64,000 nt of DNA from an uncultured Chloroflexia bacterium (GCA_963757055.1 CAVWPX010000007.1:137070-201069), one strand, 5' to 3'. Counted from the first letter of the stretch, positions 1 through 64,000 are shown. The notes: generated by a model from the letters alone, not told the origin. Numbers and translations: made by a program.

Positions 1-281
1 TCGCGCTCGGGGTCCGCCGCGATGAGCGCGTCGGTGACCGGCCGGGCGAAGCGGTACTTCGACAGCATCAGCGCGGAGACGCCCGCCTCGTCGCGGGCGT
101 TGGCCACGGACGGATCCGCCATGACCAGCTCGGCGACGAGCGTCGCGTCGTCGGCATTGACCGCGGCGATCAGGTCGGCGGGCGTCGGGTTCGGTGCCAT
201 CGTCGGGAAGTGTCTCGCATCCGGACGTGCAAGGTCCTACCCTAGTCCGAGGTCACCACCCTGCAACCCTCGAGGTCATCG

Positions 282-1049
282 ATGCGACTCGCCGACAAGG
301 TCACGATCATCACCGGTGCCGGTGGGGGCATGGGCCGGGTCGCCGCCCAGCTGTTCGCCAAGGAGGGCGCGAAGGTCGTCGTCGCCGAATACAGCGAGAC
401 GGCCGGCCGCGACACCGTCGCCATGGTGGAGGCCGAGGGCGGCACCGCCACGTACGTCCGCGCCGACGTCTCGAAGGAATCCGACGCGAAGGCGATGGTC
501 GACCACGCGCTCGACACCTACGGCCGGGTCGACGTCCTCTACAACAACGCCGGGATCATGCCGGAGGCCGACCACTCGGTGATCGATACCGACGTCGACA
601 CCTGGGACCAGGTGATGGCGGTCAACGTGCGCGGGCCGTTCCTCGGCTGCAAGTACGCGATCCCGGCGATGCAGGCGGGCGGGGGCGGCTCGATCATCAA
701 CGTCGCGAGCTTCGTCGCGATCCTCGGCTGCTCGGTCCCGCAGGACGCGTACACCGCCTCGAAGGGCGCGATCCTGTCGCTGACCCGCAGCCTCGCCGTC
801 CAGTTCGGCCCGAACGGCATCCGGACCAACGCCATCTGCCCCGGGCCGATCGAGACGCCGCTGCTGATGGACTGGCTGCTCAAGGACGAGGCCGCGAAGC
901 GGCTTCGGCTGGCACGGAACCCCACGGGGCGGTTCGGCAAGCCGGAGGAGATCGTGTACATGGCCCTCTACCTCGCCTCGGACGAGTCGAGGTTCACCAA
1001 CGGGGCGTCGCTCGTCGTCGACGGCGGCATCTCGGTCAACTACTTCTAG
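282..1049 (+). CDS. SDR family NAD(P)-dependent oxidoreductase
   Basis: 255 aa ORF; N-terminal TGAGGGMG Rossmann motif, classical SDR layout (NAG, Y..K region). Confidence 0.85.
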   Translation: MRLADKVTIITGAGGGMGRVAAQLFAKEGAKVVVAEYSETAGRDTVAMVEAEGGTATYVRADVSKESDAKAMVDHALDTYGRVDVLYNNAGIMPEADHSVIDTDVDTWDQVMAVNVRGPFLGCKYAIPAMQAGGGGSIINVASFVAILGCSVPQDAYTASKGAILSLTRSLAVQFGPNGIRTNAICPGPIETPLLMDWLLKDEAAKRLRLARNPTGRFGKPEEIVYMALYLASDESRFTNGASLVVDGGISVNYF

Positions 1050-1055
1050 CGGAGC

Positions 1056-1964
1056 GTGGACGTGGCTGCGGGCCGGATCGCCATCGGCGTCGACGTCGGC
1101 GGGAGCGGGATCAAGGCGGCCGTCGTCGACGTCGAGAGCGGGGCGATCCGCTCGGACCGGCTGCGCGTGCCGACGCCGGTGCCCTCGACGCCGGACGCGG
1201 TCAACGCGTCGATCGCCCGGCTCGTGAAGCGGCTGGTGACGTCGAGCGGGCTCGGTCCGACGACCCCGGTCGGCGTCGGCCTTCCGGGGGTCACGATCGA
1301 CGGGCACGTCCGCACGGCGTCGAACATCGACCCGAGCTGGCTCGACTTCGCGGAGCGGGAGCGCCTCTCGAGGATGCTCCTCCGCCCGGTCGCGATCGTG
1401 AACGACGCCGATGCGGCGGGGATCGCCGAGATGCGCTTCGGGATCGGCCGGGACCGACCAGGGACCGTCATCTTCCTGACGCTGGGGACCGGCGTGGGGT
1501 CCGGCGTGTTCTATGACGGCGTGCTGGTCCCGAACACGGAATTCGGCCAGATGGAGATCCGCGGCCGACCCGCCGAGCGGCGATCCGCCGCCATCGCGCG
1601 GACGCGTCGCGGCCTCTCGTGGAAGGCCTGGGCGGCCGACCTCGACGAGCACCTCCAGGCCATCGACACGCTGCTCTGGCCGAACCTCCTGATCCTCGGC
1701 GGCGGCGTCAGCAAGAACGCCGACCGGTTCATCCCGCGGCTCACCGTCCGGCCGCCGGTCGTGGCCGCGACCCTGCGCAACGACGCGGGGATCATCGGGG
1801 CCGCGATCGTCGCGGTCGAGCAGGGGGTGACCGCCGGACCGGTCCTCGAGGACCTGCCGACGATCCCGACGTCGCCCGCGCCAGCCGGCGCGAACGGGAC
1901 CGATCCCCGACCCACGACCGCCTCCCCGACCACCGACGCCACCTCGCGAGGTCCCGACCGATGA
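1056..1964 (+). CDS. ppgK: ROK family sugar kinase (polyphosphate glucokinase-like)
   Basis: 302 aa ORF; N-terminal GVDVGGSGIKAAVVD ROK/ASKHA motif resembling actinobacterial PpgK; stop overlaps next gene start (ATGA). Confidence 0.7.
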   Translation: MDVAAGRIAIGVDVGGSGIKAAVVDVESGAIRSDRLRVPTPVPSTPDAVNASIARLVKRLVTSSGLGPTTPVGVGLPGVTIDGHVRTASNIDPSWLDFAERERLSRMLLRPVAIVNDADAAGIAEMRFGIGRDRPGTVIFLTLGTGVGSGVFYDGVLVPNTEFGQMEIRGRPAERRSAAIARTRRGLSWKAWAADLDEHLQAIDTLLWPNLLILGGGVSKNADRFIPRLTVRPPVVAATLRNDAGIIGAAIVAVEQGVTAGPVLEDLPTIPTSPAPAGANGTDPRPTTASPTTDATSRGPDR

Positions 1965-62196: not shown

Positions 62197-62471
62197 GCTC
62201 GCACGGGATTTCTGAGAAGGATCGAACGGACGTACGCGCAGCGCTCACGTCGCGTTAACAAACCTCTCACAATCTCTTGACGCCCGCCCGTTCGGGCTGT
62301 CCAATGCGAACACGGCGATCGATCCCCGGCGGTCCCAGGTCGGGCCGCACGAGGCGGTCACACAGGAGGGCCGATCCGGGTCGAGGAGGGCTCGGGCGGT
62401 CGGCCGCGAATGTCGACATCGATACGCATCCGGGCATCGACGTCGATGCCCTCTCGATCGGAGGAGAGACT

Positions 62472-63616
62472 TTGTCCGCACAACGTTCCCTAGCTCGAGC
62501 CGCCGGCCTGCTGGCCGTCGCGACCCTCGTCTTCGCCGCCTGCTCGTCGAGCGGGTCGAGCGCGGCCCCGTCCAGCGGCGCGTCCGCCGCGGCCGGTGGC
62601 GGCGGCGCCAGCCAGGAGCTGATCGACGCCGCCAAGAAGGAAGGCCAGCTGTCGGTCATCGCCCTGCCCCACGACTGGTGCAACTACGGCGAGATCATCA
62701 CCAACTTCAAGGCCAAGTACGGCCTGACGGTCAACGAGATCACCCCGGACGCCGGCTCCGGCGACGAGATCGAGGCGATCAAGGCCAACAAGGACAACCC
62801 CGGCCCGCAGGCGCCGGACGTCGTCGACGTCGGCATCACCTTCGGCGACTCGGCCAAGGCCGACAAGCTGATCCAGCCGTACAAGGTCTCGACGTGGGAC
62901 ACCATCGATCCCAAGCTCAAGGACCCGGACGGCTACTGGTATGGCGACTACTTCAGCATCCTGACCTTCGAGATCAACAAGGCCGCCGTCAAGAACTCGC
63001 CGGCCGACTGGGCTGACCTCCAGAAGCCCGAGTACAAGAACCAGGTGGCGCTCGCCGGCGATCCGCGCCAGTCCAGCCAGGCGTACAACGCGGTCTACGC
63101 GTCGTCGCTGGCCAACGGCGGCTCGCTCGACGACGCGTCGAAGGGCCTCTCGTTCTTCTCGGACCTGAACAAGGCCGGCAACTTCGTCCCGACGATCGCC
63201 AAGACGGCGACCATCGACGCGGGGGCCACGCCGATCACCATCCGCTGGGCCTACAACGCGCTGGCCCACAAGGACATCGCCGCCGGCAACCCGGAGATCG
63301 ATGTCGTCGTCCCGGCCAGCGGCCGCTTCCTGGGCGTCTACGCGCAGGCGATCAGCGCCTACGCGCCGCACCTGAACGCCGCCAAGCTCTGGATGGAGTA
63401 CCTGTACTCCGACGAGGGCCAGGCCGGCTGGCTCAAGGGCTACTGCCACACGACCCGCCTCGCGGACCTCAAGGCCCGGGGCGTCTCGTCCGACCTGATC
63501 GCCAAGCTGCCGGACATCTCCGGTGCGGTCTACCCGACCTCGGCCGCAGGCCGCGGCCGCCAAGGACCTGATCACCAAGCAGTGGGACTCGGTCGTCGGC
63601 GCCGACGTCAAGTAGG
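62472..63616 (+). CDS. ABC transporter periplasmic substrate-binding lipoprotein (PotD/ThiB/AfuA-type family 1), one frameshift near 63545
   Basis: TTG start after GGAGAGA, lipobox VFAAC, family-1 SBP blocks; last ~25 aa in a different frame. Confidence 0.55.
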
Positions 63617-63640
63617 CACCCCGACCCACATCCGACGATC

Positions 63641-64000
63641 GTGAGCGTCTCCGCCACGGTCCTCGCAGAGCGGGACGCGCCACCGGCGCGTCCCGCGACG
63701 CAACGCCGGCGCTGGTCCTGGCTGGGCCTGCTGCCGTTCTTCATCTTCTGCGGCCTGTTCCTGGGCGTCCCGCTGGCGTTCCTCGTGATCGGCAGCTTCC
63801 TCGACCCGGCGGGCAACGCGACGCTGCAGAACTACGCCGACCTCTCGGACGCCCGCATCCTCGCGGCGTTCCGGAACAGCATCGAGATCAGCCTCGTCAC
63901 CGCGATCATCGGCGGGCTCTTCGGCTTCGCCCTCGCCGGGGCCGTCATCCTCGGCGGGCTGCCGCGCTTCCTGCGCAACTCGCTGATGACCTTCTCCGGC
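63641..64000 (+). CDS. ABC transporter permease, 5' partial (continues beyond window)
   Basis: GTG start, hydrophobic N-terminal TM helix, downstream of SBP gene. Confidence 0.5.
   Translation, partial: MSVSATVLAERDAPPARPATQRRRWSWLGLLPFFIFCGLFLGVPLAFLVIGSFLDPAGNATLQNYADLSDARILAAFRNSIEISLVTAIIGGLFGFALAGAVILGGLPRFLRNSLMTFSG

Follow-up and report, generated by a model that had tools for sequence, protein, structure and literature searches.

The window analysed here, a 64,000-nucleotide stretch of an uncultured Chloroflexia bacterium (GCA_963757055.1, CAVWPX010000007.1:137070-201069), has a GC content of 72% over its whole length and carries about 61 genes on both strands, as segmented by a codon-usage model trained on the window's own long open reading frames (ORFs). 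A query with its intact nucleoside hydrolase (8601-9671) returned hundreds of proteins at 83-96% identity, labelled 'Candidatus Limnocylindrales' or Chloroflexota by their source databases, and the window comes from the metagenome-assembled genome (MAG) of a soil 'Candidatus Limnocylindrales' (Chloroflexota). The codon-usage Viterbi segmentation contains many same-strand switches of coding frame inside single recognisable genes, and alignment to related loci places about 59 frameshifts in 22 of the ~61 genes, roughly a third. An earlier note, made from the sequence alone, had counted more than 30 single-base frameshifts, a figure that is borne out but too low, and had left their origin, in the assembly or in the genome, as the question addressed here.

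The comparison set comprised 169 related loci: three around the nucleoside hydrolase (L001-L003), four around an MtgA-like gene (L004-L007), 80 taken from GTDB genomes with the M24 hydrolase as anchor, 80 from JGI metagenomes with ProV as anchor, and two further short-read loci around the nucleoside hydrolase (L168 and L169). Those closest to the window bear 'MFD…bin' titles and Flye-style 'contig_N' names and are MAGs of the Microflora Danica long-read catalogue; the remaining reference loci are MEGAHIT/SPAdes or JGI short-read contigs. Every credible reference ORF was aligned to the window by a protein-to-DNA aligner that allows for frameshifts, and an event was accepted where identity reached 45% or more in each flank and no fewer than 60% of the spanning loci supported it. 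The flank-identity filter and the support ratio remove noise from the Nanopore references' own shifts as well as spurious events at gene boundaries. In PurK and close to gene starts, seeming N-terminal shifts were discounted as artefacts of alignment extension. An alternative-frame ORF at 55653-56645, used as a protein query, drew only shadow-frame hits. Targeted alignments covered an ECF transporter module, two membrane proteins, a secreted protein and a hypothetical gene at 18.9-20.2 kb.

Gene by gene, the affected genes named in the earlier note were recovered, with the exception of a mutarotase, whose sole gap was found against L008, lies three codons from the stop and cannot be polarised. 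Several counts had to be raised: the ECF module, credited with more than 10 events, holds about 25 (4 in S, 4 in T and ~17 in A), the hypothetical gene has at least four rather than two or three, and a membrane protein has two rather than one. Two affected genes, a small membrane protein (14997) and a secreted hypothetical (34340), had not been listed. The genes described as intact are so, being full-length and free of shifts against short-read orthologues; these are purK, purE, cysM, cysO, the moeZ-like gene, sufS, sufC and sufU, together with the MttB homolog, mtgA, mtgC, metF, proVWX and the M24 hydrolase.

The greatest damage lies in the ECF module. The S component (9724-10576, plus strand) is shifted at 10208 (-1), 10270 (+1), 10304 (+1) and 10371 (-1), with a possible fifth frameshift at 9739, close to the start, and these events were called from alignment to the intact short-read orthologues L168 (282 amino acids) and L169. 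In the CbiQ-like T component (10776-11409, plus strand), +1 shifts occur at ~10878, 10990, 11111 and 11196; amino acid identity to the T component of L168 is 85% across all four, and that of L003 returns identical sites. The ATPase, with duplicated A domains (11411-13084, plus strand), contains ~17 frameshifts between 11.45 and 12.86 kb, which are densest at 11.45-12.33 kb and then give way to clean +1 steps at 12499, 12638, 12720 and 12853. Seventeen events were called against the fused A protein of L003, and 12 and 7 against A1 and A2 of L168, respectively. The codon model scored 11103-12328 as non-coding. With ~17 frameshifts in 1.7 kb, the ATPase is still recognisable at 67-76% amino acid identity.

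On the 5' side of this module, the aldehyde dehydrogenase (ALDH; 1978-3454, plus strand) carries a compensating pair, an extra C at ~3071-3074 and an extra AG at ~3243, between which 56 codons are read out of frame with the ORF still open. Both events are backed by 5/5 spanning references, including short-read L168 and L169, and appear as DNA-level gaps against 7/7 and 8/8 references; the conserved catalytic-region motif 'EEIFGPV' is perfectly preserved in the out-of-frame stretch. Beyond the module, the S33-family peptidase (13116-14715, plus strand) has one +1 at ~13950 (an extra G), supported by 4/4 spanning references including short-read L168 and by a DNA gap in 4/4. The small membrane protein (14766-15154, minus strand) has one +1 at ~14997, from alignment to its 118-residue short-read orthologue in L168, with Viterbi frames -2, -0 and -2. 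The hypothetical gene of ~430 codons (18871-20192, plus strand) is shifted at 18999, 19369, 19620 and 20084, four sites agreed by three representatives of 424-446 amino acids, and possibly twice more near 19117-19142; it lies in a 1.45-kb strain-specific insertion (18776-20227) that the 96% identical relative L001 lacks. Its product has no Pfam domain, and homologues of 400-446 amino acids occur in a library of 1.8 billion proteins.

Next to this insertion, a PaiB-like FMN-binding protein (20226-20880, plus strand) shows +1 shifts at ~20394 and ~20581. Its three-frame stitched translation matches PF04299 over 1-168 of 168 positions (E 4e-52), compared with only 1-46 for the single ORF, and its Viterbi frames run +1, +2, +0; the loci offer no clean orthologue for alignment. 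For the SAM-dependent methyltransferase (23640-24461, plus strand), codon-usage frames alone indicate a probable compensating pair at ~23795 and ~24099, with the ORF still open, the methyltransferase domain entirely inside the middle frame piece, and weaker support since there is no orthologue. The membrane protein at 24509-25306 (minus strand) carries +1 shifts at 24954 and 24893, seen as single-base insertions at the DNA level and against an intact 216-residue ORF of the Nanopore-derived L004 (77% identity).

The RamA/RACo-type corrinoid reductive activase (28209-30259, minus strand) has +1 shifts at 29056 and 28455, both backed by short-read L005 (719 amino acids), L007 and L019. In the secreted hypothetical (34205-34770, plus strand), a net +2 length difference at ~34320-34340 falls in a Thr-codon repeat and was found by alignment to a 181-residue protein of L004 and to L008, both Nanopore-derived. 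The repeat (ACC/ACG), in an N-terminal linker at 34320-34340, is 20 bases longer in the window than in L004, and the length difference at ~34340 may be genuine repeat variation rather than error. The sugar ABC transporter ATPase (38331-39850, minus strand) is shifted at 39061 (+1), 38955 (+2) and 38595 (+1); short-read L009 and L030 are among the 5-8 of 7-10 spanning references that back these shifts, and DNA gaps occur in 7-8/8.

An extra C gives the 2-oxoacid dehydrogenase E1 alpha (42510-43524, plus strand) a single +1 at 42897, which is called by all 38 spanning references (18 of them short-read) and by DNA gaps in 8/8, in a context 97% identical to L008; another gives E1 beta (43567-44554, plus strand) a single +1 at 44149, called by 34/34 (18 short-read). 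The HIBADH-like dehydrogenase (44541-45460, plus strand) follows, with +1 shifts at 44712 (10/16 spanning references, DNA gaps in 4/4) and 44812 (15/16 and 7/7), and then the amidohydrolase (45516-46932, plus strand), with one +1 at 45927 (an extra C; 23/23 spanning references, 8 short-read). Sarcosine oxidase is affected in its alpha subunit, SoxA (49848-52469, minus strand), at 52426 (+2; 3/4 references), at 51698 and 51415 (+1; backed by L008, short-read L122 and the Viterbi frames) and at 50331 (+1; 4/4), and in its beta subunit, SoxB (52710-54042, minus strand), by one +1 at 52894 (an extra A; 4/4 short-read references, DNA gap in 5/5). The BetB-like aldehyde dehydrogenase (54046-55556, plus strand) has an extra C at each of 54328 and 54962 (both +1), supported by 15/15 and 22/22 references, nearly all short-read. 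Short-read JGI contig L088, locally 94-97% identical to this gene, has neither extra base, and at 54962 it is 97.5% identical over 80 bases without the extra C. Finally, the dimethylglycine dehydrogenase/oxidase-like (DMGDH-like) gene (59738-62196, plus strand) has one -1 at ~61290 (4/4 short-read references), and its first ORF matches GCV_T only over 1-63 of 255 positions, and an ABC substrate-binding protein (62472-63615, plus strand) has one +1 at ~63540, near the C-terminus (8/10 short-read references).

For 43 events, the change could be called to the base from clean DNA alignments with the nearest relatives that lack it. Thirty-two are one-base and four are two-base insertions (AG, TG, TG and GT), compared with six one-base deletions and one two-base deletion, and C or G accounts for 26 of the 32 single-base insertions. 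No deletion of more than two bases was seen to interrupt a gene in the window, and a scan for nonsense codons inside the corrected frames gave only boundary or shadow-frame hits, none of them supported. The longest nucleotide run in the window is six bases, with only 50 runs of five or more. The sites show no enrichment near runs: those of at least four lie within six bases of 10.4% of sites and of 10.5% of random positions. The inserted base equals a neighbouring base in 12/32 cases, compared with 52% expected for random insertion.

The relatives divide by sequencing technology. Counting as private any frameshift found in one locus only, at a position spanned in frame by at least two other loci, the Nanopore 'contig_N'/MFD loci have 78 private frameshifts in 78,238 aligned codons and the short-read loci have 4 in 82,557. 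The insertion bias recurs in the former, where 61 of the 78 are extra bases. Gene calls are broken up in L001, L002, L003 and L004, in each at different genes, and are intact in short-read L005, L168 and L169. At the window's own sites, short-read L005, L009, L088, L168 and L169 are in frame. In the comparison with the closest relatives that the earlier note had proposed, no frameshift of the window was shared: none of the window events spanned by L001, L004, L008 or L088 is present in them, and L001, L004 and other MFD loci have events of their own elsewhere. Contig size, taken as a proxy for depth, bore no obvious relation by inspection to the rate of private frameshifts among the Nanopore loci.

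Selection on the affected genes is unchanged. In corrected frames, the ratio of nonsynonymous to synonymous substitution rates (dN/dS) is 0.16 for ECF-S, 0.125 for ECF-T, 0.185 for ALDH and, against L088, 0.15 for the BetB-like gene; intact genes fall at 0.14-0.38, with ProV at 0.14 against L088. ECF-A1 is higher, at 0.36-0.42. Over all alignments, the medians with and without frameshifts are 0.31 and 0.34, which do not differ (Mann-Whitney P = 0.54).

Two of the window's own products, a frameshift chimera of 227 amino acids (P0244) and a hydrolase (P0370), are present in a public protein collection, where both trace to one contig of 262,905 bp deposited at NCBI and ENA; both the deposit pattern and the size resemble those of MFD Nanopore contigs. 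The Microflora Danica MAGs were assembled by Flye --meta --nano-hq and polished once with Medaka, and the authors describe Nanopore-associated errors in lower-coverage MAGs (PMC12313526), while Nanopore R10.4 bins under ~40-fold coverage have been found still to require short-read polishing (PMC9262707). Taken with the technology contrast, the privacy of the events and the unchanged purifying selection, this deposit pattern strongly supports the assembly-indel alternative of the earlier note. We therefore consider it highly probable that the frameshifts arose as errors in the consensus of a long-read metagenome assembly, most probably Nanopore, and not as mutations of the organism. The affected genes themselves are almost certainly functional.

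We propose that the window was most likely built in the same way as its closest relatives, by Flye --meta --nano-hq with one Medaka round and without short-read polishing. At modest read depth, the consensus would retain about 0.5 small indels per kb, which would mostly be spurious single-base insertions at ordinary, non-homopolymer positions. At 72% GC, wrong frames would seldom contain stops, and because of this ORFs would be split, fused or silently garbled rather than truncated. These features can be compared with the errors known from Nanopore-only assemblies (the length-ratio problem addressed by IDEEL; PMC9262707, PMC12313526), which likewise are 1-2-base indels that split ORFs, are private to each assembly, are not found in short-read relatives and leave codon-level conservation unchanged. 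The window differs from that usual picture in that its sites lie off homopolymers and are strongly biased to insertion, in that its high GC content keeps frameshifted ORFs open or fused, so that tests based on length miss part of the damage, and in that it has one 16-fold hot spot.

This hot spot is the ECF module, where frameshift density reaches 7.7 per kb compared with ~0.5 per kb elsewhere (Poisson P ~3e-22). Outside the module, the distribution is near-Poisson (variance/mean 1.1-1.5), and the number of frameshifts does not correlate with local divergence (Spearman -0.09, P = 0.54). The uneven distribution described in the earlier note thus holds for the ECF module and not for soxA, whose 4 events in 2.6 kb are within expectation. 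Identity to L001 is 92-96% on both flanks of the module and drops to 65-88% exactly across 9.85-13.1 kb. Among close relatives, two divergent allele types of the module occupy one chromosomal position, their S and T components being only 35-38% identical; one type has a fused A with an S of 405 amino acids, the other a split A1/A2 with an S of 282 amino acids. S and T of the window are of the L168/L001 type (78-85% amino acid identity), the C-terminal half of its A is nearer to the L003 type (76% vs 59%), and the window's module looks like a mosaic of the two. The densest stretch, with ~12 frameshifts in 0.85 kb, falls at the transition between the allele types.

Such density, the local fall in identity and the mixed allele types are what might be expected if the ECF module alone were a genuine pseudogene, recombinant or recently inactivated, and the remaining events were assembly errors. 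We give this little chance, as S and T retain dN/dS values of 0.13-0.16 and the insertion bias within the module matches that of the background. Moreover, the ECF module of L001, which was assembled independently from Nanopore reads of a different sample, carries 27 private frameshifts, nearly all +1, and L001 has a further 11 in the peptidase and 9 in PurK; L003 is free of them in the module (with some in PurK and the peptidase), and none occur in short-read L168 or L169. Difficulty in building a consensus at this locus, with divergent co-occurring alleles and low effective depth, fits these observations better than parallel decay. Under an assembly origin, the consensus of the window at this point may rest on a small number of reads, or on reads from a mixture of strains whose alleles differ, which would also account for the poor state of the module in L001.

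Several observations weigh against attributing all of the events to the assembly. For the window itself, sequencing technology and read depth are inferences rather than observations. The errors are not textbook homopolymer deletions, being biased to insertion and avoiding runs. Outside the ECF module there is mild over-dispersion (P ~0.04 at 1 kb), and the pur, suf and cys genes (~7 kb) have 0 events where ~3.6 are expected (P ~0.02); this absence fits uneven effective depth or strain heterogeneity, and selection against real mutations would yield it too. The densest clusters lie in accessory, strain-variable DNA, namely the ECF module, the 18.8-20.2 kb insertion and a spot at 24-25 kb, where identity is 81%. 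Lastly, the events at 23795, 24099, 24893, 24954 and 34340 rest only on Nanopore references or codon usage. In view of the insertion bias and the avoidance of runs, the event-free housekeeping genes and these weakly based events, there is a slim chance that some events are real, and it is very doubtful that a minority, in the strain-variable clusters (ECF, 18.8-20.2 kb and 24-25 kb), represents very recent inactivation of accessory genes or insertion-biased mutation lying over assembly noise.

Genuine pseudogenisation would have accessory catabolic and transport genes (e.g. ECF, Sox, E1 and RamA) lost under relaxed selection, the second of the two origins contemplated in the earlier note. The event-free housekeeping genes, the concentration of events in accessory or strain-variable loci and the raised dN/dS of ECF-A1 are in keeping with it. 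Bacterial pseudogenes typically show deletional bias, mixed lesions, nonsense codons and relaxed constraint, and accumulate in the course of reductive genome evolution, as in Mycobacterium leprae and recent host-restricted pathogens. The window resembles such genomes in having many recognisable genes with disrupted frames beside intact neighbours, but it lacks convincing nonsense codons, larger deletions and insertion sequence elements, dN/dS does not distinguish frameshifted from intact genes, and no lesion has passed to relatives. Its events are confined to one or two bases, with 36 insertions to 7 deletions, a bias that runs opposite to the deletional bias of pseudogenes, and relaxed selection is therefore not supported. 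Natural single-base indels also concentrate in nucleotide runs, unlike the sites found here; all Nanopore-derived relatives have private frameshifts of like kind and rate, which short-read relatives hardly ever show; and ~17 frameshifts in a 1.7-kb gene at 67-76% amino acid identity are unlike decay. Decay of the accessory genes as a whole has, accordingly, very little chance of being the explanation.

The earlier note had also proposed a specific artefact, random miscalls of homopolymer length in long-read sequencing of a high-GC genome. The artefact part of this proposal is supported, and published descriptions of Nanopore error stress homopolymers (PMC9262707). The homopolymer mechanism is not borne out: the window has few long runs, the sites are not enriched near them, inserted bases seldom copy their neighbour, and four of the insertions are dinucleotides, all of which makes simple run-length miscalling hardly credible as the cause. 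Two pairs of sites share a 6-base left context, TCCCTC[G] at 10990 and 13950 and GCGCCG[C] at 24893 and 28455. Although the sites are few, these pairs hint at context-specific consensus errors.

The weakest alternative is programmed recoding, by ribosomal frameshifting or transcriptional slippage that restores frames in vivo, as in the +1/-1 frameshifting of prfB, dnaX and IS3-family transposases; a frame change is likewise needed here for the full-length product, several pairs restore the frame (ALDH and the methyltransferase) and the shifts are mostly +1, but its probability is negligible given ~59 sites in 22 unrelated genes that have no slippery runs or common motifs, that are plainly in frame in short-read orthologues, and that are not conserved among orthologues as known programmed frameshifts such as those of prfB and dnaX are.

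If the frameshifts are consensus errors, the contig is not evidence of genome decay in Limnocylindrales; the biological import is then low, and the value of the result lies in annotation. Splitting, fusion or internal garbling affects about one gene model in three here. Frameshifts in high-GC sequence often leave ORFs open, with the result that gene callers emit chimeras that look full-length and that length-ratio checks understate the damage. Two frameshifted ORFs of the window, at 1517-3451 and 23640-24461, stay long and open across compensating pairs. Garbled products have already entered public protein collections, among them the window's 227-residue P0244 and a fusion of 418 amino acids, P0121, from a sister contig (L004, 10001-11257). 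The positions given above permit frame-corrected translations of the affected genes.

Several of these genes belong to a catabolic island for glycine betaine, choline and sarcosine, located at 25791-32844 (minus strand) and 49303-62196. It comprises a MetF-like protein, a non-pyrrolysine MttB homologue (PF06253, full length), RamA, an MtgA-like pterin-binding protein, DUF1638 and a corrinoid protein, as well as SoxGADB, the BetB-like ALDH, ProVWX and the DMGDH-like protein. Once the frames are corrected, the island is probably complete in this aerobic soil Limnocylindrales, and a pathway prediction that scored RamA, SoxA or SoxB as absent would be in error. A CysO(ThiS)-CysM-Mec(JAB)-MoeZ cluster at 15155-18132 (minus strand), the sulfur-carrier-protein route to cysteine, is intact and is conserved in all relatives.

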